From positions 5,422 to 69,421 of the forward strand of contig CAZUOM010000007.1 in assembly GCA_964621305.1 (NCBI GenBank): DNA of 64,000 nucleotides, written 5' to 3'. This DNA comes from an uncultured Gammaproteobacteria bacterium (GTDB lineage Bacteria > Patescibacteriota > Microgenomatia > UBA10105 > UBA927). A program made the translations under genes and the position numbers. Positions 3,664-40,364 of this stretch are shown one piece after another (the stretch's first letter is position 1; each line of letters starts with the position of its first letter). Below the pieces are notes generated by a model, which saw only the letters and a program-made list of their open reading frames with translations, did no database searches and was not told the origin of the DNA.

Positions 3664-4257
3664 TTAGTCTCGTTGGGGTTTCCAAAAGTCTCTGCCTTGT
3701 ATGTCCCATGGCAGACGATGCTCGTCGGGGTTTTGTAGATCGAACTGCTCAGAAGCACAGTAGAGAATTGGTACCGGTTGACTGGTGAGATTAACGGATC
3801 CGTGTGCAACTCCTGCTGGTATCAGAAGCATCGTTGGTCCGGATTTACCCATCACGAGGCGAGATATGATGCCGTTGGTTGGAGACGTTTTCCTTATATC
3901 CCAGAGGCCAACGATAAGGTGCGCATCTGTTGGAACATACCAAAGCTCATCTTGAATGAAGTGGAGGTGCCAAGCTTTTATTGCACCAGGATACTGGAGG
4001 CTTCGGGATATTTGTCGGACATGAAAGCTTGGCATATCCTCAAGGTGGCCATGAGCGTTGAGTTTAAATATTTCAACAAAATCACTATCTTCTGACACGT
4101 GATGTGTGCGTGAAAGTGTTTCGACTCCGTGGATTGTCTTCGCATGTCCGTACGATTGGGTGTAGACGCTTTTGCGCACGGAGTCGTTTATGTCGTCGAT
4201 GGTGATGGGTCTATTCATTACCCTGTCATTATCCTTTACCGGAGCCATTTTCGTCAA
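3664..4257 (-). CDS. RmlC-like cupin (dTDP-4-dehydrorhamnose 3,5-epimerase family / sugar ketoisomerase)
   Basis: The cupin core WHLHFIQDELWYVPTDAHLIVGLWDIR...LLIPAGVAHGSVNL and the tail EHRLPWD match RmlC-type epimerases. The start may lie at a downstream Met. Confidence 0.65.
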   Translation of the reverse strand: MTKMAPVKDNDRVMNRPITIDDINDSVRKSVYTQSYGHAKTIHGVETLSRTHHVSEDSDFVEIFKLNAHGHLEDMPSFHVRQISRSLQYPGAIKAWHLHFIQDELWYVPTDAHLIVGLWDIRKTSPTNGIISRLVMGKSGPTMLLIPAGVAHGSVNLTSQPVPILYCASEQFDLQNPDEHRLPWDIQGRDFWKPQRD

Positions 4258-13248: not shown

Positions 13249-15921
13249 ATGAGATATTCAAAGCTTATTGCTCTTTGTTCTTATGCGGTCATCGTCGTTA
13301 TTGTTTTTTCTCCTATTCTTTTTCCGCCGGCAGGTATGTTGTTATTCGGCAGTGATATCCACAGATCCTATCATTTTTTCCGGCAACTATTTCATGACTC
13401 TATTAGTACAGGACAATTTCCGTGGTGGAATCCGTACCTTTTTTCCGGAGAGCCACTAATCGCTAACCCCTCGGTTGCATTCTGGTACCCATTCAACTGG
13501 CTGTTTGCAGTTCTTCCGTACAGATTTGTTTACTCGTGGATTATTCCGATTCATATTTTTATTGCAATGACGGGAATGTACGTTTTTAGTTCAAAATTCA
13601 AAATTCAAAATTCAAAATTAGAAGAAAAGGTAGAAACACCATTTGATTTTGGTGCTTTTATTGCCGGTTTAATCTTTGGATTAAGTGGGTATTTCATGGG
13701 AAGGATTTGGGAAGGACATGTGGAGCTAATTCTTGCGGCAAGCTGGATGCCGTGGGTTATATTTACAAATGTCCAATGCCAAATGTCCAATGCCAAATGG
13801 AAAACACAATGTGTTATCGCAGCAGTTGTGTTTGCCATACAGCTTTATGCCGGGTATCACACCATTGCCTTATTTACACTAGAAGCGGTGTTAATTGTTA
13901 CATTGTTACACTGTTACATTGTTAAAAACATTAGGCCGCTTTTGCCGGCGATACTCTCTATAATCATTGGGTTAGGTTTGGCTGGACTTCAGATTATTCC
14001 CTCTCAGGAGTTTTTTAGTCGAAGCATTCGGACGTATGAACTTCCTTATTCATGGGCTGTCTTCGGTTCATACACGGTTGAAAACCTCAAGCAGATTTTT
14101 CAGCCGTTTATTCTGGGTGGGCCAGAGAGCTACAGCGGTCCAAGTCCCAATTTCGGTGAAATGGCGGCATACATCGGTGTTGTCCCGTTGGTGCTTGCTC
14201 TTCTTGGTATTGTGTGGGCAATAAAGCGCCGCGCGTGGATTTCAATTGCCATGATGGTTATTGCACTTTTTGGGTTATGGATTTCATTCGGTTGGAATGC
14301 TCCCGTGGATCTGAATAAAATCCTTTGGGACAGTGTCCCTACATATAAGTATCTGCGCATTCCGTCGCGGCACCTCATTCTTTTTGTTTTCGGTATGAGC
14401 TTCCTCGCCGGCGTCGGCCTTAGCTTCGCAAGGAGAGTCCTTGCGAAGCTAATTATTTCTCTGGTTATTGTTGTTGATCTGGTGTGGTTTGCTAAAACGT
14501 TTGTTACTCTTGCGCCCGATCCTTCCACACGGCACAGTAAAGAGCTTGTTGGTTATCTGCAAAAAAATTTGGGACTGGCGAGAATTTTGCCGAACTTTAA
14601 TGTCGGGATGGGAACGCGAGACGCTCTCGATTTCGATGCAGCAATGGGGTATAAATTTTTTTCCGCTTCCGGTTACGACCCGTCGATTCTGCGTAATTAC
14701 TACGAATTTGCGGCAGCCGCAGGGAAAATAGAAAACCCGGATGTCCAGCGAAGTGACGTTCAAATTCCATATCTAGTTCCCCAGTCTAGATACACTGACT
14801 TTCTTAATATCAAATATATTTTTGTTCCGTCGTGGTTTGACTCAGTTGCGGGATCATCAAAATTTTCTCCGGTGCTGGCAGAAAATATAAAAGATTTCTG
14901 GAAACTCTATGAAAATAAAAACATCTTTCCTCGGTTCTTTCTTGCGCCGTCGCTTGTAGTTTTCCCGACTCGAGACGGTGTTGCCCGGGCAATAAGAAAC
15001 GAGGATTATAATCCATCGGAGACAATATTGGTTGAAAGTTCAAGTATCAAAAATCAAAGTTTTTCACCAAGCTGTTTAGAAAAAAACCTTCCTCCTCCCG
15101 AAGTGCTTTCCTATTCTTACAATCGGATCGAGCTACTTACAAGTTCCTCATGTAATGCCTTTCTGGCAACTAGTGAGGTGATGTATCCCGGCTGGAGTGC
15201 AACTATTGACGGGAAAAAAACAGAGATTTTCGAGGGAAACCTTGCCTTTCGAACGCTCTGGGTGCCGGCGGGGGAACACAACATTGTTTTACAATATCAA
15301 CCCTGGATTTTTGTCGTAGGTTTTTTCGTGAGCATTGCGACAGTGGCAGGGTGTTTGATTTGGACCAAAAAGTCGGCACACAGTGTATTGGTGGTTCTGG
15401 ATCGGGACGGAACACTTATCAGAAACGAAGGATTTATTGGACGTGGAGACAAATGGATGAGTGAACTTGTCATTAATGCGCCTGTAGTGTGTTTTCTTTC
15501 TTATATACAATCCAAATATAAAACGATGATGATAGTTGTTAGCAATCAATCGGGCGTGGCCAGAGGGTATTTTGACGAAAAGCGAATCCGTGAGGTCAAC
15601 GAAGCAATCAATGAGCTTTTGAAAAAACAAGGCATTACCATAGATGGTTGGCAGTTTTGTCCGGATGTGGATGCGGTCTACGCGAAGGCTCGGCCCGAAA
15701 TTTTTTGGAACAAGCAGTACGTGAAAACGGCGACGAAACGAAAACCAGCAACCAAAATGGTTGACGACGCGCTTGGGCAACTTGGCAAAAAGATCGGAGA
15801 TTTTGACACGACGATTGTTTTAGGCAATAGCGAAGATGACGCGGAACTTGCCCGGGTCCTTGGCGCTGTCTGGATTGATGTCCGTGGGGCTAGCTATGAG
15901 AAGCTTGTTGCGTATCTATGA
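13249..15921 (+). CDS. YfhO-family membrane protein fused to a C-terminal GmhB-like HAD-IIIA phosphatase domain
   Basis: The N-terminal ~690 aa form a YfhO domain (HRSYHFFRQLF...FPWWNPYLFSGEPLIANPS). The C-terminus carries DRDGTLI, VVSNQSGVARGYF and ..CPD.., typical of D,D-heptose-1,7-bisphosphate / histidinol phosphatase HADs. The gene contains three short tandem repeat tracts. Confidence 0.8.
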   Translation: MRYSKLIALCSYAVIVVIVFSPILFPPAGMLLFGSDIHRSYHFFRQLFHDSISTGQFPWWNPYLFSGEPLIANPSVAFWYPFNWLFAVLPYRFVYSWIIPIHIFIAMTGMYVFSSKFKIQNSKLEEKVETPFDFGAFIAGLIFGLSGYFMGRIWEGHVELILAASWMPWVIFTNVQCQMSNAKWKTQCVIAAVVFAIQLYAGYHTIALFTLEAVLIVTLLHCYIVKNIRPLLPAILSIIIGLGLAGLQIIPSQEFFSRSIRTYELPYSWAVFGSYTVENLKQIFQPFILGGPESYSGPSPNFGEMAAYIGVVPLVLALLGIVWAIKRRAWISIAMMVIALFGLWISFGWNAPVDLNKILWDSVPTYKYLRIPSRHLILFVFGMSFLAGVGLSFARRVLAKLIISLVIVVDLVWFAKTFVTLAPDPSTRHSKELVGYLQKNLGLARILPNFNVGMGTRDALDFDAAMGYKFFSASGYDPSILRNYYEFAAAAGKIENPDVQRSDVQIPYLVPQSRYTDFLNIKYIFVPSWFDSVAGSSKFSPVLAENIKDFWKLYENKNIFPRFFLAPSLVVFPTRDGVARAIRNEDYNPSETILVESSSIKNQSFSPSCLEKNLPPPEVLSYSYNRIELLTSSSCNAFLATSEVMYPGWSATIDGKKTEIFEGNLAFRTLWVPAGEHNIVLQYQPWIFVVGFFVSIATVAGCLIWTKKSAHSVLVVLDRDGTLIRNEGFIGRGDKWMSELVINAPVVCFLSYIQSKYKTMMIVVSNQSGVARGYFDEKRIREVNEAINELLKKQGITIDGWQFCPDVDAVYAKARPEIFWNKQYVKTATKRKPATKMVDDALGQLGKKIGDFDTTIVLGNSEDDAELARVLGAVWIDVRGASYEKLVAYL
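13591..13618. repeat. (TCAAAAT)x4 heptanucleotide tandem repeat inside the YfhO-HAD gene
   Basis: Read directly from the sequence: ttcaaaattcaaaattcaaaatta. Confidence 0.9.
13768..13801. repeat. 14-nt unit (AAATGTCCAATGCC) x2.4, built from two imperfect heptamers, inside the YfhO-HAD gene
   Basis: Read directly from the sequence: aaatgtccaatgccaaatgtccaatgccaaatgg. Confidence 0.9.
13894..13925. repeat. (ATTGTTAC)x4 octanucleotide tandem repeat inside the YfhO-HAD gene
   Basis: Read directly from the sequence: attgttacattgttacactgttacattgttaa. Confidence 0.85.
15337..15921 (+). other. HAD-IIIA (GmhB/histidinol-phosphatase-like) phosphatase domain at the C-terminus of the YfhO fusion
   Basis: Motif I is DRDGT, motif II is SNQSG, and the Zn-site-like region is QFCPD. 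The domain follows the last TM helix, so it is predicted to be cytoplasmic. Confidence 0.7.
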
Positions 15922-18107
15922 AACTCCTCTTTCCGTTTTTGGCCTACGCAGTCGTCGTTCTTTTTGTATTTGATAAGGCATTGTATCCGAGTCAGAACGA
16001 AGTTATCTTCGGCCCGGATATCTGGCGATACCACTATTTTCAGCGTCCGTTCCTGGGCGAGTCGTTTCGAAGTGGCATCGTCCCATGGTGGAACCCGTAT
16101 ATCATGGGCGGTCAGCCATATCTGGAGCAGCCGCAGATTACGACGTGGTATTTACCAAACCTACTCTTTACGATCTTGCCAGCAAACAGGGCCATTTCTT
16201 GGTACTTGGCCCTTCATATTTTCTGGGCGATGGCGGGGATATACTTATTCATTTCAAATTTCAAATTTCAAATTTCAAATTTAGCTGCGTGGGCGGCAGG
16301 GATTGCATTTGGTCTGTCGGGGTATTTTGCTGCACGGATCTACGCCGGACACATTGACATAATTGCGGCATCAAGTTGGTTGCCGTGGGTGATCGCTTCG
16401 GTTGTCAGTTGTCAGGCGTCAGTTGTCAGTAGAAAAAGAAATTGTGTTATTACGGCAATATTTTTTGCCATGATGCTGTTGGCCGGGCATCAGATGGTAG
16501 CCGTGTACACGGTTGAGGCAATTGGGGTAGCGGCATTGGTTTATGCAGTTGTCCAACGGTCGCTCCGGCCACTTGTGATTTCAACCGTTTCCATCGCATT
16601 GGGTTTGGGCCTTGCGGCAATTCAGATTCTCCCCAATCATCAGCTCATTGCCAACAGCATCCGGACGATTCAACTGCCGGAAGCATGGTCCGTCATCGCC
16701 ACCCCAACCGCCGCGCACTTTCTTGAGTTTATCGACCCAACGTTCTTCTACGACCGACTGCCTGATGTAGGCTTGGGACACGAACACGTCGGCTACATCG
16801 GGAAAGTGCCTTTGTTGTTTGCAATCACCACAATCCTCTTTTTCTTTCTCCGGCGGAAAAAATCTGTTGAAATTTTGATCCTTATCATCCTGTCAATATT
16901 CAGCTTGTGGGTGTGGCTCGGACCAAACGCTCCGGTTGATATGTTTGCCGTCATGCGAAAAATCCTGCCGCTCTATGGACAGATCCGGATCCCGTCCCGG
17001 CATATTGTGTTGTTTATTTTGGCGGCAAGTGCCTTGTTTGGCATCGGGATGAGCAGGGTAAAAAACACCGTCGTCAGGCTGCTGCTTTGTGCGCTGGTGC
17101 TTCTTGATCTTATTCCGTTTGCGCGGGCAAATATCCATTTGGGTCAGATACCGGAAACACGGGAAGATGGGGAATTGGTCGCATTGCTTGCGGGTGATGA
17201 GGGATTATACCGGTTCCTGCCGGATTTTTACCATGGGCAACCGTTGCGGGACGCGTTGGAGTTTGATGCTCCGATAACCAAGCGCATATTCTCCGTTTCC
17301 GGCTACGAAACGCCGCCACTGCGAAACTATTGGGAGTTTTTGTTGGCAGTCAACAACCTGGATATTGCAAAAAACCTAGATTATATTGAAACGACACCAC
17401 CGTTTATAAATATTACTTCACCGTATCTAAATTTTCTTAACGTCAAATACATTCTTACTCCCACCGGGAGTGATTCTTTAGATGCATACCCTCGTCAATT
17501 TTCCCAAATAAAAGAGAATAAAGATCGTGGATATCGGGTTTATGAAAATAAAGAGGTTTTGCCGAGATTTTATTTTGTGCAAAATGCGGTTGTTGCTGCG
17601 CGGGCTACCATTGACGAAGCCATACGCGGGGGGAGCGGCGATCCCGGGACGATGGTCTATTTGGAACAGGAAACGATGCCTATCCCACGGCCGTGTTCGC
17701 AGACCACGACCCCAACAGTATCCGTAACAACCTATCAATCCGACCGGATTCTGTTGCAAATATCCAATCCGTGCGATTCGTATCTGGTTTCATCAGAAGT
17801 CATGTATCCCGGGTGGATGGCAACCATTGACGGGAAGGAAACAAAAATTGCGGTAGGCAATCTCGCGTTCCGGACGATCTTCGTGCCGGCTGGAGACCAT
17901 ATAGTCCAAATGCAGTATCGCCCCCGCATCGTGTACCTCGGTGCGCTCGTAAGTTTGGTTAGTCTTGTTGTTTTTTTCTGGTTGATCTATGATGACGGTC
18001 ATGGAATCGCAGTCAGGAAAAGTTTGCACACTTCGTCAGCTGGGCACAATCACCCAGCGTCTGAAGAAAGCCGGAAAAAAGATTGTTCTTTGCCATGGAG
18101 TGTTTGA
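15918..18107 (+). CDS. YfhO-family membrane protein (third tandem paralog)
   Basis: It carries the signature IWRYHYFQRPF...GIVPWWNPYIMGGQPYLEQPQITTWYLPN. It contains heptamer repeat tracts at 16254-16281 and 16401-16430. Its 3' end overlaps the next gene by about 118 nt. Confidence 0.8.
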   Translation: MKLLFPFLAYAVVVLFVFDKALYPSQNEVIFGPDIWRYHYFQRPFLGESFRSGIVPWWNPYIMGGQPYLEQPQITTWYLPNLLFTILPANRAISWYLALHIFWAMAGIYLFISNFKFQISNLAAWAAGIAFGLSGYFAARIYAGHIDIIAASSWLPWVIASVVSCQASVVSRKRNCVITAIFFAMMLLAGHQMVAVYTVEAIGVAALVYAVVQRSLRPLVISTVSIALGLGLAAIQILPNHQLIANSIRTIQLPEAWSVIATPTAAHFLEFIDPTFFYDRLPDVGLGHEHVGYIGKVPLLFAITTILFFFLRRKKSVEILILIILSIFSLWVWLGPNAPVDMFAVMRKILPLYGQIRIPSRHIVLFILAASALFGIGMSRVKNTVVRLLLCALVLLDLIPFARANIHLGQIPETREDGELVALLAGDEGLYRFLPDFYHGQPLRDALEFDAPITKRIFSVSGYETPPLRNYWEFLLAVNNLDIAKNLDYIETTPPFINITSPYLNFLNVKYILTPTGSDSLDAYPRQFSQIKENKDRGYRVYENKEVLPRFYFVQNAVVAARATIDEAIRGGSGDPGTMVYLEQETMPIPRPCSQTTTPTVSVTTYQSDRILLQISNPCDSYLVSSEVMYPGWMATIDGKETKIAVGNLAFRTIFVPAGDHIVQMQYRPRIVYLGALVSLVSLVVFFWLIYDDGHGIAVRKSLHTSSAGHNHPASEESRKKDCSLPWSV
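16254..16281. repeat. (TCAAATT)x4, i.e. a TTCAAAT heptamer tract, inside the third YfhO gene
   Basis: Read directly from the sequence: atttcaaatttcaaatttcaaatttcaaattt. It encodes ISNFKFQISN. Confidence 0.9.
16401..16430. repeat. (GTTGTCA)x4 heptamer tract (one imperfect copy) inside the third YfhO gene
   Basis: Read directly from the sequence: gttgtcagttgtcaggcgtcagttgtcagt. Confidence 0.85.
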
Positions 18108-19536
18108 TCTAGTACACCCCGGACACATCCGCTATTTTTCCTCTGCCAAAAAACACGGCGACATTCTCGTGGTAACACTCACGGCTGACCGGTTCGTCAG
18201 AAAAGGGCCGGGGCGGCCGGTATTTAACGAAAAACTCCGCGCAGAGTTTCTGGCAGCCATAGAGCTTGTTGACTATATCGCAGTTAGCAACAGTTACAGC
18301 GCAACGGTTGCCATCCAGGCTATCCGGCCAGACGTTTATGTGAAAGGCCCGGACTACAAATATCGAAAGCCCAACCCTTCTGTCTCCAGAAATCTCGGGA
18401 ATGAGGAAGCGGCGGTTGTCTCCGGCGGGGGAAAGCTCGTGTTCACCGATGACGTATTATTTTCCTCTTCTCATCTCATCAATGAATATATGGACGTATA
18501 CGATAAAAAAACGAAAGGTTTTTTGGATCAGCTTAAAACAACATATAGCGACGAATATTTGATTAAAAAACTCTGTTCAGTCAAACCGATAAAGGTTTTG
18601 ATTATAGGGGATGCGATTGTTGATCAGTATGTCTACTCTAATCCATTAGGAAAATCTTACAAGGAGCCGATTGTGGTCCACAAGTATTTAGAAGAAGAGA
18701 CATATGCAGGTGGGGCACTAGCAACGGCTAATCACGTAGCTGCGCTGTCGGATCACGTGAGGCTCGTGACCCTATTGGGTTCAAAACATTCCCACGAGCC
18801 GTTCATACGAAGACATTTACGAGTGGGCATCGTACCGAAATTTTTTTATCGAAGCGGCGAGTCAACCATTGTGAAGCGCCGCTATATTGATCAATATACT
18901 AACCAGAAGCTTTTTCAAATTAGTTATATCAACGATGAAGACATATCATTAGCACTTCAACGATCGGTTATGACATATTTAAAAAGGGAAATTCCCAAAC
19001 ACGATGTTGTGATAGTCAATGACTTTGGACACGGTTTTTTAACAACAAATATCATCGGATTAGTGTGCAAAGCATCCAAGTTTCTGTGTCTAAATGTGCA
19101 GGCAAATAGTGCCAACTACGGATTTCATATCATTACGAAATATCCGAGAGCGGATTTTGTCTGCATCGATGACCTAGAATTACGACTGGCTACCCACGAT
19201 CGCTCTGGTGAACAAGGAGCACTCATGAAACGGGTCTACGATAGGCTCCATTGTCAAACTATATTGGTGACCCGCGGGCCGTATGGGAGTACGATCTACT
19301 CTAAAAAAAGAGGGTGCCATGATGTACCATCTTTTGCCGGTTCCATTGTCGACCGCATGGGTGCTGGTGACGCACTTTTTTCTATCGTTTCGCCCTTGGC
19401 TTATTTGGGTGTTGCACAAAAAGCGATTGCCTTTATAGGCAACGTTGCTGCTGCTTTAAAAATTCAGACCGTGGGCAATAGAACACCGATTGATTTTATG
19501 GAGCTGACGAAATTTATTACCAGACTGCTCAAATAA
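17989..19536 (+). CDS. Bifunctional sugar-phosphate nucleotidyltransferase (cytidylyltransferase-like, RfaE domain II type) and PfkB-family sugar kinase. It is HldE-like but with the domain order reversed.
   Basis: The N-terminus shows the (H/T)xGH nucleotidyltransferase motif (IVLCHGVFDLVHPGHIRYF). The C-terminus shows a PfkB kinase signature (VLIIGDAIVDQY... GAGDALFS). Confidence 0.75.
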   Translation: MMTVMESQSGKVCTLRQLGTITQRLKKAGKKIVLCHGVFDLVHPGHIRYFSSAKKHGDILVVTLTADRFVRKGPGRPVFNEKLRAEFLAAIELVDYIAVSNSYSATVAIQAIRPDVYVKGPDYKYRKPNPSVSRNLGNEEAAVVSGGGKLVFTDDVLFSSSHLINEYMDVYDKKTKGFLDQLKTTYSDEYLIKKLCSVKPIKVLIIGDAIVDQYVYSNPLGKSYKEPIVVHKYLEEETYAGGALATANHVAALSDHVRLVTLLGSKHSHEPFIRRHLRVGIVPKFFYRSGESTIVKRRYIDQYTNQKLFQISYINDEDISLALQRSVMTYLKREIPKHDVVIVNDFGHGFLTTNIIGLVCKASKFLCLNVQANSANYGFHIITKYPRADFVCIDDLELRLATHDRSGEQGALMKRVYDRLHCQTILVTRGPYGSTIYSKKRGCHDVPSFAGSIVDRMGAGDALFSIVSPLAYLGVAQKAIAFIGNVAAALKIQTVGNRTPIDFMELTKFITRLLK

Positions 19537-20516
19537 TGATGAAAAACGTATTAGTTACTGGCGGGGCAGGATATATAGGAGCGTTATTGGTGCCACAATT
19601 ACTATCCCGCGGGTACTACGTAACAGTTCTTGATTTATTCCTTTATGGAGACGCGTTGGCAAAACACAAGAATCTTACTTTGGTAAAAGGCGATATCAGT
19701 GATAGGATGGTCATCGGGGAGACCTTACCCGGCGTTGACTGCGTCATTCACCTAGCGTGCATCTCTAACGATCCGAGCTTTGAGTTGAATCCGAAATTAG
19801 GAAAGTCAGTTAATCATGACGCAACCATTCAGCTTATTGACTTAGCCAAAACGGCAAGGGTTAAGCGTTTTATATATGCTTCAAGTTCCAGCGTCTACGG
19901 CGTCAAAAAAGAAAAAGATGTAACAGAAGATTTGCCTCTTGCGCCGCTGACGGATTATTCAAAGTATAAAGCGTTGTGTGAGGAGTATGTTTTGAAAAGT
20001 CAATCAAAAAATTTTACGACAGTGGTTTTGCGACCTGCTACAGTATGTGGGTTTTCTCCCCGGATGCGGCTTGATTTAACCGTGAACATGCTTACGATAC
20101 ATGCATTGGTGAATAAAAAAATTATCGTTTTTGGCGGGTCGCAACTCCGGCCTAACATTCATATAGCTGACATGTGCCGGGCATATGAGTTATTTTTGGA
20201 AGCTCCCGGTGAGTCGATTTCAGGAAAAATATTTAACGTAGGATATCAAAATCTTACTGTTATGGAAATTGCAAAAATGGTAAAACGAGTGCTTGCGGAT
20301 CGTTCGATAAAAATTGAAGTAAAACCAACCAACGATTTGCGCTCCTATCACATTTCTTCTGAAAAAATCAAAAAAGAACTGGGGTTTGTGCCGAAACACA
20401 CGGTTGAGGAAGCAATCATGGACATAAAGAAAGCATACGATCGCGGCTTTCTGCCGGACGCATTGACTGATAAACGATACTACAATATCCAGATGATGAA
20501 GTCAGTAACACTTTAA
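19536..20516 (+). CDS. NAD(P)-dependent sugar epimerase/dehydratase (extended SDR). It could be an HldD-like heptose 6-epimerase or a UDP-sugar epimerase.
   Basis: It has the Rossmann motif VLVTGGAGYIGALL, and YxxxK lies inside YSKYKALCEEY. Confidence 0.8.
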   Translation: MMKNVLVTGGAGYIGALLVPQLLSRGYYVTVLDLFLYGDALAKHKNLTLVKGDISDRMVIGETLPGVDCVIHLACISNDPSFELNPKLGKSVNHDATIQLIDLAKTARVKRFIYASSSSVYGVKKEKDVTEDLPLAPLTDYSKYKALCEEYVLKSQSKNFTTVVLRPATVCGFSPRMRLDLTVNMLTIHALVNKKIIVFGGSQLRPNIHIADMCRAYELFLEAPGESISGKIFNVGYQNLTVMEIAKMVKRVLADRSIKIEVKPTNDLRSYHISSEKIKKELGFVPKHTVEEAIMDIKKAYDRGFLPDALTDKRYYNIQMMKSVTL

Positions 20517-30095: not shown

Positions 30096-31604
30096 AGGAA
30101 CACCTTGAATGCTTACTGTGTAAATTGGTTGCCTGTTTTTCATGTATTCGGTAATTCCCCAGTAACGAGTAAAAAAAGATTCCCTGTTGAGAAGCACAAC
30201 GTAACTAGCTTCATCAAATCCCTTTTGGTTCACATGGGCGGTAAGATCCGGGCGCAAGTACTTGGCTGCTGCATCTGCCGCCATCACGATATGGACGTAG
30301 CTATCCTTTGGAGCGTTAGCGTTTAGCCAGCGGATAGCTTGCTTTTGAGAGGTGCCCCAGTACTCGACATCAAATTTGTGCCAGGCGCCGCGGATTCCAC
30401 CCACTAGCTCGTTGAAGTAGGAGATTTGGTAAGGGTGATAGGAGGTAATCTGTAAAATTAAGTAACCGAATATTCCCAACGTAATTATAGCTAAGAAAGG
30501 CTTTTTCACATTGTTAAATTGTTTCATTGTTAAATTGTTAAAAAATCGAAACGCATTTGCGGTGCCAACTGCCGCAATCGCCGCCAGCGGAAAAACTACT
30601 TCTTCAAAGTGGCGGATGCCGTCGATGACGCCGATCTTGGGGTTGAGATAGCGAATAAGAGGAATGAAAAACCAAAAGAGAAGTAGAGAGGCGACGGGTT
30701 TTTGTCTGATTTGCCTAATTAGTCTAATTAGTCCAATTAGGAAAAAAACCAAGACGGGAACAGGCGTCGTAACCGCCAAGTACCCGAAAGGGTAATGCCA
30801 GGGGACGTTGACGCCGGATTTGTAGATGTTGCCAAAATAGAGGACTTCTAGGTTTTGAGTGTTGTCTAGAAAAAATCGGAACATGTAGGTGAGCCGTTCG
30901 ATTGGATTGGGCCACAAGGGGAGCCAGAGGAGGAGAGCGGCGGCTGGCGCCAGAAGAAAGTATAGTAAGAAGAAAATCTTTTTCTTATCTATTATCCAAG
31001 CGCCGGTTATCACTGGCACAAAAAGAGTATTGACCTTAGTGTTGAAGGCGATTGCAAATGAGAGGCAGGCGAGAACTAGATCTTTGACGCGTTTGTACTT
31101 TACCAGTCTCCAAAAAGCGTAGATAGCTAGAGCAAATGCCGCCGCTTGTGGAACATCCTTCATGTTGTTGTGGAGGTCGCCGAAGTAGCGAGGCAAAAGC
31201 GCGAGAAACGTAAATCCAGCAAGAGCAGTTAGAAAGCCAAATGATTCTAAAAGGAATAAATAGAGTACAAAAATTCCGATTACGCCTGAAACGATTATGG
31301 ACAAGTGATAGGCGTTGTCAAATGGGAGAATCTTGAATTTTTCAAAAAAAAGTTGGTTCGTTGCCGCTGGACCAATCACCATCAGGGGCCCAAAAGGCAA
31401 ATCGTAAGTGCCGCGGGGGTCCGGTATGGTGAAGGGAATATTTTTGGTGAGTTCTTCTTTGACCGGAATCCCCAAGTGCCAGAGCCCTGCAAAAAAGTGA
31501 TGGTGGAAGTCCCACGTGACGCCGTAGTCGTCAATAATCACCAGATGTACAACTAGTAAAAGTATAGTAAGAGCTATTCCTATTTTTACGTGTTTACTTT
31601 TCAT
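29979..31604 (-). CDS. ArnT/PMT_2-like GT-C membrane glycosyltransferase
   Basis: It starts TWDFHHHFFAG... and contains AYHLSIIVSGVIGIF...LPRYFGDLHNNMKDVPQAAAFALA. It carries repeat tracts at 30508-30539 and 30715-30741. It overlaps the convergent gene by 117 nt. Confidence 0.65.
   Translation of the reverse strand: MKSKHVKIGIALTILLLVVHLVIIDDYGVTWDFHHHFFAGLWHLGIPVKEELTKNIPFTIPDPRGTYDLPFGPLMVIGPAATNQLFFEKFKILPFDNAYHLSIIVSGVIGIFVLYLFLLESFGFLTALAGFTFLALLPRYFGDLHNNMKDVPQAAAFALAIYAFWRLVKYKRVKDLVLACLSFAIAFNTKVNTLFVPVITGAWIIDKKKIFFLLYFLLAPAAALLLWLPLWPNPIERLTYMFRFFLDNTQNLEVLYFGNIYKSGVNVPWHYPFGYLAVTTPVPVLVFFLIGLIRLIRQIRQKPVASLLLFWFFIPLIRYLNPKIGVIDGIRHFEEVVFPLAAIAAVGTANAFRFFNNLTMKQFNNVKKPFLAIITLGIFGYLILQITSYHPYQISYFNELVGGIRGAWHKFDVEYWGTSQKQAIRWLNANAPKDSYVHIVMAADAAAKYLRPDLTAHVNQKGFDEASYVVLLNRESFFTRYWGITEYMKNRQPIYTVSIQGVPLTFIYDSGLKQLASPNQPQSISGKQKNHGIRRQRKPLL
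30508..30539. repeat. 16-nt unit x2 (CATTGTTAAATTGTT[T/A]), two octamers related to the 13894 tract, inside the GT-C gene at 29979-31604
   Basis: Read directly from the sequence: cattgttaaattgtttcattgttaaattgtta. Confidence 0.8.
30715..30741. repeat. 9-nt in-frame repeat x3 (CTAATTAGT) inside the GT-C gene at 29979-31604
   Basis: Read directly from the sequence: ctaattagtctaattagtccaattagg. It encodes LIGLIRLIRQ on the minus strand. Confidence 0.8.
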
Positions 31605-33102
31605 AGATTGTGACCGTTTGTGCGCCGTAAAGTTCTTTAAGAAAATTATATTTTAGTTGGAATTGAGACTTATCTCCGTCAAAATTAGTGAAGAAAATAT
31701 ACTTTATGTTTTGGCGGGCAAGCCACTGGCGTGCTTGGTCAGAAGTCATATTTTTGGCGAAAAATTTTGAGGATATTGCTTTTTTTTCATTGCTACTGAT
31801 CGTTGCAAACGCGTGGCCGGTGTAGCTAGTATGCCCGCTTAGGGCGGGGACTATGGAATCCATGTGGGTAGCTGGACTGGCAAGAACCACGTCACTTAAA
31901 GGGCTTAAGGAGCTTAAGTAGGTAAAACCATCATAGATTTCTCGCGGTAGGTACAAGAGGGGTATTCGCTCATGGGGTCTGACAACTAGTTTTTGTTGGA
32001 TTTCCCAGTATAAGGTAGGAAGGGTGAGAAGAAAAAAGATAGATAAAAGAATAATTTGAAATTTGAAATTTGAAATTTTAAATTTAAGTCCCTCTACGGC
32101 GAGCGCCCCCCAGAAGACGTAGAGAGCGGGGAACAGAACCCGGCTGTTGGAGACGCCGAGAAATTTAGGAATTGGTGAAAAGAAAAGAAGGTAACAAATG
32201 ATTAAAAGGACAGCGCCAAAAGTCATAATTGGTTTAGGCTTTAGGAATATGGAGCGTAACCCTAAAACTCCTAAAATAACTATCGGTCCTATCGATAGCA
32301 TCATAAAAAGCCCAGTTGTAGCGACCTGCTGACCGGCCTCCCAAAGTTTGGATTGGATATGGGGTTGGGTATTAGTGAGGCTGTTGTAATAGAGGGCAAC
32401 GATAAGAAAAACTACGGAAACTAAAAAATTTCCCCGGCCGGTTATCCACGACGTGAGGAGAAATAGCCCTGACACTACTGGGTTGAGTGTTGTAAGAAGG
32501 GTGATCAAGACAGTTGAGAAAATCAATTTTCTTTTTTGAATAAAAAACCATACGTAAACGAGGAGCAAAAACAAAAGCGTTTGCACTAGCTGGTGTGGAA
32601 CGGCACCTAAGCGGTCGAATGCAAGGTTGGGAGTTTTCCAAAGCAGAAATGGATACCACATGAATGTGCCGTCAACCCAGATGCGGTTCATAAAAGATGT
32701 AGCTGTTGTGGTAAAAAAAAATGCAATGAGAGCTTTTGACTTATTGTTATTAAATACGGATTGCATGAGTTGATAGGTGAAAAATAGTATGGTAAAAGAT
32801 AGAAGAAATACTGAGAGGTTGTATGACCATTGCGGTGCCAACCCGCCGGCTCCACCCAATTTCCCCAAAAGGATATTCGGCCAAAACATGATGCTTGGAC
32901 TGATTGCCTCGGTCGTGTATCTGTTTGCCGTCAGCCACGCCCCATGAGCAGCCTGAGTAAAGTGGTTAAGATAGAAAAAATAATCTTCATAATAGTGAGT
33001 GGTACCCAGGTAGACTTCTCCTGGTTTTGTGTTAATGACACCGGAAAAAAAGTTGATGGAGTTGAGGGATGAAAGAAACAGAATGAAAAAGAGAACAATC
33101 AT
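31594..33102 (-). CDS. Polytopic membrane protein of the YfhO-distant paralog family
   Basis: The N-terminus (THYYEDYFFYLNHFTQAAHGAWL) and C-terminus (VVLASPATHMDSIVPALSGHTSYTGH) match the family. A heptamer repeat lies at 32053-32086. Confidence 0.6.
   Translation of the reverse strand: MIVLFFILFLSSLNSINFFSGVINTKPGEVYLGTTHYYEDYFFYLNHFTQAAHGAWLTANRYTTEAISPSIMFWPNILLGKLGGAGGLAPQWSYNLSVFLLSFTILFFTYQLMQSVFNNNKSKALIAFFFTTTATSFMNRIWVDGTFMWYPFLLWKTPNLAFDRLGAVPHQLVQTLLFLLLVYVWFFIQKRKLIFSTVLITLLTTLNPVVSGLFLLTSWITGRGNFLVSVVFLIVALYYNSLTNTQPHIQSKLWEAGQQVATTGLFMMLSIGPIVILGVLGLRSIFLKPKPIMTFGAVLLIICYLLFFSPIPKFLGVSNSRVLFPALYVFWGALAVEGLKFKISNFKFQIILLSIFFLLTLPTLYWEIQQKLVVRPHERIPLLYLPREIYDGFTYLSSLSPLSDVVLASPATHMDSIVPALSGHTSYTGHAFATISSNEKKAISSKFFAKNMTSDQARQWLARQNIKYIFFTNFDGDKSQFQLKYNFLKELYGAQTVTIYEK
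32053..32086. repeat. (AATTTGA)x~4.7, the reverse complement of the TCAAATT heptamer tract, inside the membrane gene at 31594-33102
   Basis: Read directly from the sequence: aatttgaaatttgaaatttgaaattttaaattta. It encodes KFKISNFKFQI on the minus strand. Confidence 0.9.
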
Positions 33103-37202: not shown

Positions 37203-37280
37203 ATGCGGCCGTTTCTTTCCATTATCATCCCGTACCATAATTCCGCTGATACGATCAGTCGCTTGCTGATTCCTTAGAAA
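37203..37280 (+). pseudogene. Truncated 25-codon copy of the 5' end of the GT2 gene at 39351
   Basis: It encodes MRPFLSIIIPYHNSADTISRLLIP*, versus MRPFLSLIIPYHNSEATIGRLIT in the intact gene. The spacer upstream of it is also similar. Confidence 0.5.
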
Positions 37281-37414
37281 AAACCAAAACGAAGTACGTT
37301 TACCAGGGGTAGCTAAAACCGGTTACAACACTCTTGCCGCCTGGAGATCAAGCATACATTACTGCACGTTTTGAACCGGTTATGGGAATACCGGGCCTTT
37401 TGGAGCGTAAATAA

Positions 37415-38212
37415 TTATTTTAGTTTTCTTTTCCAATACTTCCACAGTTGTTCAAATTGTGACCGTTCAGCGGCAGCGATGGTAGGATCTTCAATAATAA
37501 AACCTGTACGATTATCGTGAGCAACATAAGAAACCTCATGATTATAGATTTGTTTATCGACGTGGCCGAAACGATTGGTTTTTAGGCGCGGGATAACTAA
37601 CATTTCGTTTCGGCTGGATTGATACCTCGCTTGGTATTCCCTCGTTGAGGGATTTTCTTCCAGAATCTCACGTGTTTTGATACCACGGCTTATGGTCTTT
37701 TCAATAAAATCTTTTAAGTAATCAGGGTCACTTGTCAACCCTGTCTGAACATCCGGACTCCCTTGGCAAACAACGAGTATTTCTTCTCCTGACAACGCAG
37801 CACGGTAAACCATGCGTAACCCATTCTCTCCTTCATACCAGCGTACTCGTGGCATATTGTATGTTTTACCTAAGAGATTTCTTTCAAACTCAACTGATAC
37901 TTCTCTTATTTGTTTTGCCATCTTGTTATATGAGCTAATTTTGTTGACTATGAATGATTCTAGTTGAGACGGATTTGCTGCCGTGAACAATAATTTGGTT
38001 TCTCCTTTCACTTTGGAAATGAGTCCGAGGATAATCAGGTCCTCTAAAAACATATAGATACTTGCTCTGGGAAACCCAGTCTTTTTTTCTAGCATACCAA
38101 CGCTGGTGGTTCCAGTCTCTAGGAGTGCTACATAAAGTCGAGCATGTTCTGTTTGCAAATTCAGTTCAGCAAAGGCTCCTCTGATATATTCTGTCGACAA
38201 TTTTGACAACAT
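37415..38212 (-). CDS. TrmB-family transcriptional regulator (sugar-responsive HTH regulator)
   Basis: It has an N-terminal winged HTH (LYVALLETGTTSVGMLEKKTGFPRASIYMFLEDL) followed by a TrmB-like C-terminal domain. Confidence 0.6.
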   Translation of the reverse strand: MLSKLSTEYIRGAFAELNLQTEHARLYVALLETGTTSVGMLEKKTGFPRASIYMFLEDLIILGLISKVKGETKLLFTAANPSQLESFIVNKISSYNKMAKQIREVSVEFERNLLGKTYNMPRVRWYEGENGLRMVYRAALSGEEILVVCQGSPDVQTGLTSDPDYLKDFIEKTISRGIKTREILEENPSTREYQARYQSSRNEMLVIPRLKTNRFGHVDKQIYNHEVSYVAHDNRTGFIIEDPTIAAAERSQFEQLWKYWKRKLK

Positions 38213-38262
38213 GTTGCTTCTATTTTGGCATAAATCTATAATATTGTCAAAATTTTAGACAT

Positions 38263-38589
38263 ATGGGGCAAGAAGCAAACACTCACCATCTCTCTGATAG
38301 CGAGGCAGAATACCTCGTTCGTATTGATCGTCTCGTTGCAGAAGGAGAAAAACTTCAAAGATTTGGTTCTTTTGAAGTTGATTCGCTCTTGAAAGCAGGT
38401 TACTCTCTCTCCCTCATTGAGGAGTTGGCCAATGGTGGTTTCGAGATGACTCAAGACAATGCCATGAATTTGGAAAAAAAATTGCGTGGGGAAAACCACG
38501 GACGCTTAACAACTCGACCTATTACTCTAACTGAGGAAGACTTACGAAGATACGGGGTAAGGGCTGAAAATGATGCCGATCACCGGTAG
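38263..38589 (+). CDS. Hypothetical protein (108 aa)
   Basis: It is an ORF in an intergenic position with no recognisable motif. Confidence 0.3.
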   Translation: MGQEANTHHLSDSEAEYLVRIDRLVAEGEKLQRFGSFEVDSLLKAGYSLSLIEELANGGFEMTQDNAMNLEKKLRGENHGRLTTRPITLTEEDLRRYGVRAENDADHR

Positions 38590-38599
38590 TGGGTTAAAT

Positions 38600-38629
38600 A
38601 TATCCTAGGACATATCCTAGGACTTGACA
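38600..38629 (+). promoter_or_regulatory. Candidate operator and -35 box of the vapBC-2 operon
   Basis: Two direct 12-bp repeats, ATATCCTAGGAC x2 (38600-38623), each contain a palindromic CCTAGG. They are followed immediately by TTGACA at 38624-38629. The antitoxin start codon is at 38661. Confidence 0.3.
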
Positions 38630-38660
38630 AAGCAGTTCTACGGTGGCATCATGAACATGT

Positions 38661-38909
38661 ATGAATACCGCGATTAATACCCATCTCTACCTTCCGGCAG
38701 ATTTGTATGCAGAGATTGCCGATTTGGCCCGCGAACAAAATCTGCCATTTGCGCGCGTGGCGCGGGAGCTGATGGCTGACTCCCTCAAGCGGAAAACGAA
38801 GAAGAAAAAGAAGGTCTATAAAAACCCGCTAGACTGGATGCTTTCTTTTCATCTAAAAGGGCCTACGGACGGATCCATTAACCACGACAAGTATCTGTAT
38901 GACGAGTAA
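38661..38909 (+). CDS. vapB: Putative ribbon-helix-helix/CopG-like antitoxin
   Basis: It is a small protein immediately upstream of a PIN gene and overlaps it. It has a charged C-terminal tail (KRKTKKKKKV). Confidence 0.45.
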   Translation: MNTAINTHLYLPADLYAEIADLAREQNLPFARVARELMADSLKRKTKKKKKVYKNPLDWMLSFHLKGPTDGSINHDKYLYDE

Positions 38910-39315
38910 AAGAAGGGTACTTATCGACACTGATGCGATTTATGCTTCATTTGTTGCGGTAGATGCAAATCACAAACGGGCCCAGTTAGTCAGAAAAAAT
39001 TTTCCCTCTTTGCATTTTCATATGACTGATTTCGTTTTTGGTGAAGCGGCAACGTTATTATCCCGTCGGGTAGGTAAATCAACAGCGGATGCGTTTTTGA
39101 AAGGATTTGCTGAACACGGACTTGTACTTATTCCCGTGCCAAGAAATATCGTTATCCAAGCTGTCGACTACTTCCTCCGACAAACAACCAAAGATACCTC
39201 ATTTGTTGACTGCGTGAATATGGCAACGGCCAAACGATTAAGGATCGATACGATTTTTTCTTTCGACAAGGCGTATGAGCGGAACGGATTCAGATTGATT
39301 TCTGCCGTTTCGTAG
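38899..39315 (+). CDS. vapC: PIN-domain ribonuclease toxin
   Basis: It starts RVLIDTDAIYASF. Acidic residues and T/S are conserved at the usual PIN positions, and the C-terminus reads FSFDKAYE. Confidence 0.75.
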   Translation: MTSKRRVLIDTDAIYASFVAVDANHKRAQLVRKNFPSLHFHMTDFVFGEAATLLSRRVGKSTADAFLKGFAEHGLVLIPVPRNIVIQAVDYFLRQTTKDTSFVDCVNMATAKRLRIDTIFSFDKAYERNGFRLISAVS

Positions 39316-39350
39316 ATTAGGATACTGATTACTTGCCCCAACAAACCTCA

Positions 39351-40364
39351 ATGCGGCCGTTTCTTTCTCTTATCATCCCATATCACAATAGTGAGGCCAC
39401 GATTGGCAGGCTGATTACATCTATTTCTAAATCTAAGCGAGCGCCGTCATACGAGGTAATAATAGTTGACGATTGGTCGAAAGAAAAGTGCAAAGTGCAA
39501 AGTGCAAAGTGCAAAGTTATTCGCCTAAAAGCCAATCGTGGACCGGCGGTGGCGAGGAATAGGGGGGTGGCGGTTGCGAAGGGAAAGTTTATCTTGTTTC
39601 TCGATAGCGATGTAGAACTTTTCCCTGATACCCTCCATAACTTAGCTGTTATTTATCAGGAAGACCCGGATGTCGTTGCGGTAACTGGCGTTTGGGTCAA
39701 AGAGCAGAAAACGAAGGAATTTTTCTCCAATTTTAAGGCCCTGCGGGATTGGAGCTACTGGATCAATGAACGGGATAAAAGCGGGTACTACTTTCTCTTT
39801 TCGACACGAATTGCCTCTATTAAAAAAACCGTTTTTCAGCGCTTGGGCGGCTTTGATGAAACCTACCCGGCGCCGCTGGTTGAGGATATTGAGTTGACAT
39901 ACAGAATTGCCCGGCGATATGCGATCATATTCGCCCCTAATGTCCGCGTGCGGCATGAATTTGAAGGTTTCTGGCCGATTGCAAAAAAGTACTTTTTACG
40001 GGCTTACTACTGGACCAAACTTTATCAAAGAAGGAAGAAATTCGATCCGGTGGCAACAACGTGGCAAGAAGCATTGACGACCTTATCCGGTGTTGCTGTA
40101 GTCTTTTTTGGAGTCGTGAGTTTACTTGCAGCCATAAGCGTTCCCAGCATATCAAATATCAAATATCAAATATCAAATATGATTTGGGGAAAGGTTTTTC
40201 TGGGGGCACTGATTCTGCATGTTTTTCTCATCCGTAAGTTTTTGGTCTTTATGTATCGCGAAAAGGGTCTCTGGTTTGCCATGCGCGGGTTCTTTAGCGG
40301 GTTGGTTTTATACTGCTTCATTTTTGCCGGGGCACTGGCTGGGAAACTGAAATCAGGGAGATAG
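39351..40364 (+). CDS. Family 2 glycosyltransferase with C-terminal transmembrane helices
   Basis: Motifs include LSLIIPYHNSEATI, VIIVDD and DSDVELFP (DxD). It carries two heptamer repeat tracts at 39487-39519 and 40151-40180. Confidence 0.8.
   Translation: MRPFLSLIIPYHNSEATIGRLITSISKSKRAPSYEVIIVDDWSKEKCKVQSAKCKVIRLKANRGPAVARNRGVAVAKGKFILFLDSDVELFPDTLHNLAVIYQEDPDVVAVTGVWVKEQKTKEFFSNFKALRDWSYWINERDKSGYYFLFSTRIASIKKTVFQRLGGFDETYPAPLVEDIELTYRIARRYAIIFAPNVRVRHEFEGFWPIAKKYFLRAYYWTKLYQRRKKFDPVATTWQEALTTLSGVAVVFFGVVSLLAAISVPSISNIKYQISNMIWGKVFLGALILHVFLIRKFLVFMYREKGLWFAMRGFFSGLVLYCFIFAGALAGKLKSGR
39487..39519. repeat. (AAGTGCA)x4.7 heptamer tract inside the GT2 gene
   Basis: Read directly from the sequence: aagtgcaaagtgcaaagtgcaaagtgcaaagtt. 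Confidence 0.9.
40151..40180. repeat. (ATCAAAT)x4.3 heptamer tract inside the GT2 gene
   Basis: Read directly from the sequence: atcaaatatcaaatatcaaatatcaaatat. It encodes ISNIKYQISNM. Confidence 0.9.

Follow-up and report, generated by a model that had tools for sequence, protein, structure and literature searches.

Two in-frame heptanucleotide tracts in a glycosyltransferase gene of Candidatus Gottesmanbacteria and their turnover among relatives

Surface-glycan glycosyltransferases of Haemophilus, Neisseria, Campylobacter and Pasteurella undergo phase variation through simple sequence repeats (SSRs). In these contingency loci, a perfect repeat whose unit is not a multiple of three nucleotides (nt) lies inside the open reading frame (ORF), the enzyme is truncated by the frameshift that a one-unit slip causes, and several genes of one glycan cluster may carry such tracts. 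Heptanucleotide SSRs inside genes are known from Haemophilus influenzae, namely (AATTTTG)14 in hmw1A and (AACAACC)8-13 in an HI1369 homologue, with frameshifted alleles and length differences between strains (PMC2651432). Bacterial SSRs include an excess of heptamers, which one hypothesis relates to the polymerase footprint (PMC4692102). The short tandemly repeated repetitive sequences (STRRs) of heterocyst-forming cyanobacteria and the heptamers of Xanthomonas and Nostoc are mainly intergenic, and STRRs have also been found inside the RNase P RNA gene. Rickettsia palindromic elements are small repeats inserted in frame in protein genes. Here we describe two heptamer tracts inside one family 2 glycosyltransferase (GT2) gene, and compare them with these systems. 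The gene lies in a stretch of 64,000 nt, called the window below (contig CAZUOM010000007.1 of assembly GCA_964621305.1, positions 5,422 to 69,421 of the forward strand). The metagenome-assembled genome from which the window comes is Candidatus Gottesmanbacteria, a member of the Candidate Phyla Radiation (CPR), and its relatives are annotated as Candidatus Gottesmanbacteria or Patescibacteria. The tracts are real and evolutionarily dynamic, and in principle they could act as a switch.

Two heptamer tracts within one glycosyltransferase gene

The GT2 gene encodes a protein of 337 residues. As the preliminary description of the window had claimed, two heptamer tracts lie inside this single ORF (Table 1). 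Both are perfect, and they are translated in frame into KCKVQSAKCKV (tract 1) and ISNIKYQISNM (tract 2), the peptides given in that description. The copy number of 4.7 given for tract 1 was also right, but tract 2 has 4.6 copies instead of 4.3, because the earlier unit began two bases late. The host species of the window has been sampled once only, and the exact GT2 protein is encoded on contig SBBN01000017.1 of GCA_005239695.1. Perfect tracts of at least 25 nt number five in the 64-kb window; all have period 7, and the other periods from 4 to 12 are not represented. Third-order Markov simulations of the window (n = 300) gave zero such tracts. Therefore, chance is no explanation for the tracts. 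Perfect in-frame sister tracts are present in two YfhO-like genes and in the gene of a 502-residue polytopic membrane protein, and a PMT_2-type gene in the window contains imperfect 8-mer and 9-mer arrays. The kinship that had been noticed between tract 2 and a YfhO tract was confirmed: the units ATATCAA and ATTTCAA (the tract at 16251) are one base apart.

In the GT2 protein, an N-terminal GT-A domain is followed by three membrane helices that are predicted in the C-terminal part (residues 238-262, 270-293 and 307-334). In an alignment of 30 orthologues, with BLASTP identities of 61-78%, neither the DD at residues 40-41 nor D85/D87 varies. From sequence and model, the protein is predicted to have the membrane-anchored GtrB/CsbB-like architecture, that is, a GT-A domain with DD/DxD motifs followed by C-terminal transmembrane helices. 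The relatives of solved structure that were found by sequence, TarS (5tze), GtrB (5ekp) and dolichol-phosphate mannose synthase (DPMS, 5mlz), match the N-terminal GT-A part only; for GtrB the E-value of this match was 1e-8. An AlphaFold model of the protein is of moderate overall quality (mean predicted local distance difference test score, pLDDT, 61), with a poorly modelled central domain; the pLDDT around both tract sites was 68-84.

The core of the aligned proteins is near-invariant and is broken by exactly two hypervariable, length-variable segments. These two segments are the positions of the two tracts. In the AlphaFold model, site 1 (tract 1, codons 45-55) is a coil that connects the strand ending in the DD motif (residues 34-40) to the strand at residues 54-58. 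Site 2 (tract 2) is a turn between the membrane helices 238-262 and 270-293, at 0.8 of the gene. Tract 2 is thus placed in the C-terminal membrane-anchor region, as had been proposed, at the turn between predicted helices 1 and 2. In contrast, tract 1 does not lie after the conserved GT-A region, where the preliminary description had put it, but inside this domain. Relatives hold unrelated inserts at both sites, hairpin elements among them. Judged from these sequences and the model, both sites appear to be permissive, one as a loop at the surface, just past the DD motif, and the other as a helix-helix turn, and almost any sequence would be tolerated there.

We changed the tract lengths in silico. 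A change of one unit at site 1 gave a product of 56 or 72 residues, and a change of one unit at site 2 gave a product of 274 or 297 residues without the conserved C-terminal helices. Thus, every one-unit change truncates the product, and both tracts are frame-sensitive as had been supposed. A three-unit change gave an intact protein of 330 or 344 residues. When a loss of one unit at one site was paired with a gain of one unit at the other, stops were met between the two sites and the frame was not rescued. Therefore, the two tracts form an OR-gate for OFF only, and the combinatorial ON/OFF switch that had been suggested is not supported. A useful internal restart, which had also been considered, was not found: no in-frame ATG is present downstream of the tract, and the in-frame GTG/TTG codons, from residue 67 onward, would start a product without the DD motif. 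A slip at site 1 is a null allele. The gene is, in principle, switchable by slippage.

Tract sites and heptamer arrays in related genomes

We fetched 149 related loci and seven more, and used 129 distinct GT2 genes for a census of the two sites (numbers with L or P below are our handles for the sequences compared). Period-7 arrays were present at site 1 in 21 of the 129 genes and at site 2 in 16. Their units differ among genomes, and their length is mostly 30-33 nt. For example, site 1 is AAGTGCA x4.7 in the window and a perfect AAGTACA x4.7 in L151, with equal length and codon phase; the four differences between them are all G>A and all fall at one unit position. Decayed or variant units (AAGTGTA and AGTTAAA versions) are found at site 1 of L152 and L005. 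At site 2, the units ATATCAA (window), ATGTCAA x4.7 (L002) and CTGTCAA (L003) share their codon phase, L071 has a decayed copy of the tract, and L073 and L152 have ATGCTGA-type tracts that are interrupted exactly where TGA would arise. The core nucleotide identity of the measured pairs was only 71-81%. By these comparisons, the arrays at each site are orthologous, and their units evolve in concert. The units are identical within a genome and different between genomes. This points to homogenisation, and we therefore infer that slip events have happened in the line of descent.

The number of units varies as well. An AAAGTCG cassette at site 1 has 1.6 copies in L136 and 4.6 copies in L080 and L139, with near-identical flanks. 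The difference is exactly three units (21 nt), and the frame is kept. Directly upstream of the 1.6-copy allele, L136 has a 12-nt tandem duplication (GATGATGGAAGT x2, translated as DDGSDDGS), which may offset the loop length. Whole cassettes also differ between close relatives. The pairs L079/L080 (94% core identity) and L108/L110 (96%) have unrelated cassettes at site 1, and one of these cassettes is a hairpin-pair (REPIN-like) element that is read through in frame. Similarly, P0036 and P0141, which belong to one 90% cluster, are completely different at site 1, where P0141 has the unit of tract 2 of the window.

Hairpin-pair (REPIN-like) elements were found in frame at site 1 of L079 (about 4130-4215), L006, L014, L032, L076, L101 and P0049. 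They encode peptides of the type VIPAQAGIQ...WIPGQARNDK or SFRPPSRNPSGSRVKPGMT. A second family of small inserts (...RQGFGGQ... or PFDLSQGG) occurs at site 2 of L007, L109 and L069 and at site 1 of L002; in L007, a 24-nt insert of this family splits the heptamer tract. Many of the database records with clear Gottesmanbacteria-type loci (GT2 46-71% identical, same neighbourhood) are titled 'uncultured Gammaproteobacteria bacterium', and these titles are apparently placeholders or wrong.

Several apparent signs of tract heterogeneity were rejected. Nine contigs (L121-L139, L041) end in the GT2 gene, but the ends lie in the invariant core (RVRHEFE...YYW) and not at a tract; assembly-graph collapse between co-occurring Gottesmanbacteria species with near-identical DNA is the likely cause. 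Length differences within 90% protein clusters were all artefacts of start site or truncation. The split GT2 orthologue of L157 (1342-2370) is due to a point nonsense change (TCGTTA to TCATGA) and not to a tract, and is either a pseudogene or an error of a single-run assembly. L156 starts inside a tract, as is expected for a k=31 assembler.

The preference for heptamers extends over the lineage. In 1.10 Mb from 68 related genomes, we counted 63 perfect tracts of period 7, 15 of period 8 and four each of periods 6 and 9; periods 4-5 and 10-13 gave none. Tandem Repeats Finder, applied to all fetched loci, gave 134 period-7 arrays. Among these, 83 have 4.0-4.9 copies, and 106 (79%) lie inside ORFs of at least 150 residues. 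Copy numbers of 4.0-4.9 were found in 67% of the coding 7-mer arrays; the shares were lower among non-coding 7-mer arrays (43%, p=0.03) and among coding 9-mer arrays (22%, p=2e-8). Arrays in non-coding DNA can have as many as 10-12 copies, and they often adjoin GT2 orthologues. In other genes of the lineage, coding tracts cluster at 0.5-0.75 of the gene length without a 5' bias. Almost all near-perfect coding units (24 of 25) are free of stops in all registers of the coding strand, and 18 of the 25 have antisense stops. Because 7 and 3 share no factor, all trinucleotides of a unit come to serve as codons, which accounts for this general lack of stops. This no-stop rule leads in turn to a narrow vocabulary of A(n)T(m)C-type units. 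Units differing by at most 1 nt made up 27% of the pairs within a locus and 7% of those between loci, and none of 2000 permutations reached this value.

One natural slip of a single unit was found, in a different gene. In L002, a glycine-rich surface-protein gene (16999-20294, minus strand) is split into ORFs of 924 and 168 residues. The 924-residue ORF ends five codons past a tract of three (A[A/G]TCAAA) units, and the 168-residue ORF carries on in another frame. The homologue in L155 (621-1445) has four units and is continuous; L002 thus has one AGTCAAA unit fewer. P0151, P0161 and P0162 likewise have no break at the junction where L002 is split. This allele suggests that one-unit slips can become the consensus in this lineage. 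It was the only convincing split allele among the 127 coding period-7 and period-8 arrays that we screened. In L002, the motif AAGGAG lies 5 nt upstream of the ATG of the second ORF, which may therefore be re-initiated.

Four other OFF candidates from this screen were rejected. The imperfect array of L071 (746-786) lies in the 5' leader, upstream of the ATG at 799, and the array of L056 (8760-8791) runs across the stop codon of an acetyltransferase-like gene with hexapeptide repeats. The candidates in L104 and L014 seemed, from ORF lengths alone, to be cases of read-through into the sequence that follows.

Within single genome neighbourhoods, on both strands and in unrelated genes, the units look like genome-specific 'dialects'. 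Examples are L043 (at 434, 483, 8522 and 8947) and L006 (at 961, 1325, 3529, 10854 and 10903). Intergenic 8-nt arrays (AATATACA, AATCTACA and TAGAAGCT) of up to 12.5 copies stand directly before or after GT2 orthologues, and a related 8-mer, TGTTACAT, is in frame in a YfhO-like gene of the window at 13889-13924.

The inserted block upstream of the gene

Directly upstream of the GT2 gene lies a block of about 2.1 kb (37203-39350). It contains a TrmB-like gene on the minus strand, an ORF of 108 residues, a ribbon-helix-helix (RHH) candidate and a PIN gene, and its left edge is marked by a stub, the truncated duplicate of the first 24 GT2 codons. The preliminary description was therefore right about a decayed copy of the gene's own 5' end; this copy matched the GT2 gene with 64.5% identity over 31 residues in tblastn (E=2e-7) and with 93% identity over 29 nt in blastn. 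L151 and L152 lack this block, and a gene of about 475 residues stands there immediately before the GT2 gene. Therefore, the block is an insertion specific to the lineage of the window, placed at the 5' end of the GT2 gene. A vapBC module had also been reported before the gene. Its toxin half was confirmed by the PIN-domain match, but the 82-residue ORF that overlaps the PIN gene by 11 nt has only a weak RHH_5 match (Table 1). About 40 nt upstream of this RHH-like ORF, a perfect 12-nt direct repeat (ATATCCTAGGAC x2, at 38600-38623) contains the palindrome TCCTAGGA. This repeat is a plausible operator for toxin-antitoxin autoregulation.

We did not find any REPIN-like hairpin element in the window. 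Programmed ribosomal frameshifting was rejected as a role for the tracts, since their units, as judged from sequence, are not of the slippery X XXY YYZ type. A diversity-generating retroelement was likewise not found: no reverse transcriptase is present among the annotated parts of the window, which is partly annotated, and a template repeat was not searched for.

Table 1. Coordinates of the tracts and of associated features (positions in the window unless a locus is named)
Feature	Position	Strand	Evidence or remark
GT2 glycosyltransferase gene, 337 residues, both tracts inside	39351 (ATG)..40364	+	PF00535 Glycos_transf_2, E=6.7e-26
Tract 1, perfect (AAAGTGC) x4.7, 33 nt	39485..39517	+	Tandem Repeats Finder, period 7, 100% matches
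Tract 2, perfect (ATATCAA) x4.6, 32 nt	40149..40180	+	Tandem Repeats Finder, period 7, 100% matches
Sister tract (TTCAAAA) x4.3 in YfhO-like gene (13249-15921)	13590..13619	+	Perfect, in frame
Sister tract (ATTTCAA) x4.6 in second YfhO-like gene (15918-18107)	16251..16282	+	Perfect, in frame
Sister tract x4.7 in gene of 502-residue polytopic membrane protein (31594-33102, minus strand)	32053..32085	-	AATTTGA on plus strand, TCAAATT on coding strand; in frame
Truncated duplicate of first 24 GT2 codons (MRPFLSIIIPYHNSADTISRLLIP, then stop)	37203..37274	+	tblastn and translation
TrmB-like regulator gene in inserted block	37415..38212	-	PF01978, E=1.3e-9
82-residue ORF, candidate ribbon-helix-helix antitoxin	38661..38909	+	Weak RHH_5 match, E=0.02, below Pfam cut-off
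PIN-domain (VapC-like) toxin gene, immediately upstream of GT2 gene	38899..39315	+	PF01850, E=1.4e-7
Intergenic 8-nt arrays near GT2 orthologues	L110 4065-4165; L105 1345-1413; L108 2021-2071; L010 1083-1133; L014 7101-7135

Origin and possible use of the tracts

We consider that the tracts are genuine heptanucleotide SSRs, of a kind frequent in all Gottesmanbacteria genomes compared, and that they probably turn over by slippage. Most likely, the lineage as a whole tends to form 7-8-nt arrays, and the two tracts are tolerated products of this tendency and not a tuned two-bit switch. The perfect repeats at orthologous sites, the concerted units, the three-unit step, the frame lock, the avoidance of stops and the L002 slip all support this explanation. 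The tracts would arise and turn over by slipped-strand mispairing in steps of 7 nt. As a step of 7 nt is not divisible by 3, the frame would be kept only between lengths three units apart (about 1.6, 4.6 or 7.6 copies), and we propose that this filter leaves tracts of about 30-33 nt with differing units across species. The filter would also explain why the units have no stop in any register of the coding strand. OFF variants, if present, would form a minority subpopulation, with the ON length dominating all sampled populations.

Several observations weigh against this explanation. The change from 1.6 to 4.6 copies, itself an inferred step, would have required two out-of-frame intermediates or some unknown three-unit event. 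Non-coding arrays, like coding ones, peak near 4.4-4.9 copies; therefore, the frame lock is not the whole reason for a length of about 32 nt. The likeness of units within a genome is not predicted by simple local slippage. Moreover, the unrelated site-1 cassettes at 94-96% core identity show that recombination or replacement acts besides slippage. All 122 distinct full-length GT2 orthologues are single intact ORFs, without any frameshifted allele, and no length variant was found within a species in the few comparisons that were possible: L080 and L139 have the same tract length as four members of the P0084 cluster, and L037 and L123 the same as P0027 and P0122. Invariant tract length had been named in the preliminary description as the observation that would speak against a switch. 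Across the lineage the length is not invariant, given the alleles of 1.6 and 4.6 copies and the concerted change of units, but within species it was identical.

The classical alternative is a selected contingency locus, in which stochastic ON/OFF switching of GT2 and of the nearby tract-bearing membrane genes would diversify a surface glycan against phage or during host attachment, the two tracts raising the OFF rate or giving graded states. We regard this as unlikely, although several observations are in its favour. A single glycan cluster carries tracts in two YfhO-like genes, the PMT_2 gene, the gene of the 502-residue membrane protein and GT2, just as several genes of one cluster do in known contingency loci. 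The repeat is perfect, lies inside a glycosyltransferase ORF and has a unit that is not a multiple of three, and a one-unit slip abolishes the product in silico; at site 1, at codons 45-55, it would give an early null. Surface glycosyltransferases are the class that is phase-variable in the four genera named above (PMC2651432; PMC9176279). Tracts of at least 25 nt occur in about 19% of GT2 orthologues but in 1-4% of the remaining genes at the same loci, and perfect tracts with homogenised units persist at orthologous sites over deep divergence. In addition, the split gene of L002 is a frameshifted allele in another surface-protein gene and a direct counterpart of the H. influenzae heptanucleotide SSRs. 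However, many alleles of classical contingency loci are OFF, whereas none of the 122 GT2 orthologues is OFF and the L002 allele is the one convincing split among 127 arrays. The consensus sequences therefore weigh against frequent OFF states. Unlike the strain-variable heptamers of H. influenzae with their 8-14 copies, the tracts described here have only 4.6-4.7 copies, are in frame in the consensus and show no strain-level length polymorphism in same-species comparisons. A copy number high enough for rapid switching and a general 5' placement, as in typical contingency loci, were not seen: only site 1 is close to the 5' end, site 2 being at 0.8 of the gene, and the position of the tracts in other genes is contrary to the N-terminal bias that is tied to phase variation (PMC3315296). 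Also unlike those loci, the tracts keep their positions across deeply diverged relatives while their units are replaced, and they belong to a CPR lineage that is environmental and uncultivated. The catalytic GT-A domain, in which site 1 lies, is presumably cytoplasmic, and the second tract adds no functional state. Arrays are common between genes too, and frame-neutral 9-mer, 18-mer and 21-mer repeats and hairpin elements at the same sites fit tolerance. Thus, frame sensitivity, length variation in the lineage and a slip allele elsewhere speak for the ON/OFF interpretation of the preliminary description; its combinatorial logic, the restart and OFF alleles of the gene itself do not.

The arrays might instead be dispersed as blocks, like STRRs. 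Arrays of 30-33 nt would be copied between sites by ectopic conversion or by an unknown mechanism of mobility or synthesis, would form genome-specific unit families and would lodge in permissive sites as small palindromic elements do. The 134 arrays resemble STRRs in that they are dispersed, belong to related unit families in each genome, stand also between genes and are found inside functional genes at tolerant sites. Such copying predicts the excess of similar units within loci, but composition and the no-stop rule shrink the unit vocabulary, so that recurrence may be convergence, and the paralogy of the two YfhO genes inflates the similarity within a locus. The exact unit of tract 2, ATATCAA, turns up in L049, in a different gene, and in L156, at site 1 of GT2, and families such as AATTACG/AACTACG are common to intergenic and in-frame arrays. 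The length peak near 32 nt outside genes, the wholly different site-1 cassettes of close relatives and the near-identical cassette of L136 and L080 despite 82% core identity would also be expected; ordinary homologous recombination via the conserved flanks, however, explains cassette exchange. Hairpin elements stand at the same site in relatives. The in-frame hairpin pairs at site 1 of L079, L006, L014, L032 and others resemble REPINs (PMC3116915) and also Rickettsia palindromic elements, and their presence shows that selfish or repetitive DNA is tolerated there. The inserts of the window differ from such elements in being tandem heptamers and not palindromes. Unlike STRRs and the heptamers of Xanthomonas and Nostoc, which are mainly intergenic, the arrays here lie for the most part (79%) in long ORFs, are read in frame and have about 4.6 copies; the organism belongs to a different phylum from the heterocyst-forming cyanobacteria. 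Furthermore, one-unit and three-unit alleles with identical flanks are what local slippage predicts, and no transposase, reverse transcriptase or donor copy was identified. We therefore hold block-wise dispersal to be improbable. Still further from the data, in our judgement very improbable, are inert relics, frozen low-complexity insertions without raised mutability, or protein-level repeats, that is, peptides with a 7-residue period kept for a role. They would fit the equal tract lengths in the few same-species comparisons and the in-frame state of all alleles. However, perfect repeats have persisted in several lineages despite 71-81% identity of the surroundings and with changes running through all units, the peptides at the sites have no conserved sequence across orthologues, and one-unit and three-unit variants exist.

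A bolder proposal is also conceivable, and we put it forward only tentatively because we doubt it. In Gottesmanbacteria, and perhaps in other CPR bacteria or Patescibacteria, genome-specific heptamer arrays at permissive sites of envelope-glycosylation and surface-protein genes might form a set of long-lived contingency loci, in which about 4.6 copies is the ON state and repeated passages through OFF explain the concerted units; or blocks of 30-33 nt might be spread by an undescribed copying mechanism. Our literature search, in the library that was searchable, found no report linking Patescibacteria, Gottesmanbacteria or CPR with SSR phase variation. If true, either form of this proposal would be the first SSR 'phasome' reported in CPR.

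Throughout the lineage, arrays of 7-8 nt are preferred and their units are shared within a genome, a pattern that recalls the unexplained heptamer repeats of cyanobacteria. The two tract sites mark the two dispensable segments of a widespread enzyme. Even as a mutational by-product, as we favour, the tracts are a clean natural example of a reading frame filtering SSR evolution (1.6, 4.6 or 7.6 copies). CPR bacteria are tiny, uncultivated and mostly attached to other cells. If the tracts switch glycosylation genes, CPR bacteria would share a bet-hedging device of host-adapted pathogens.

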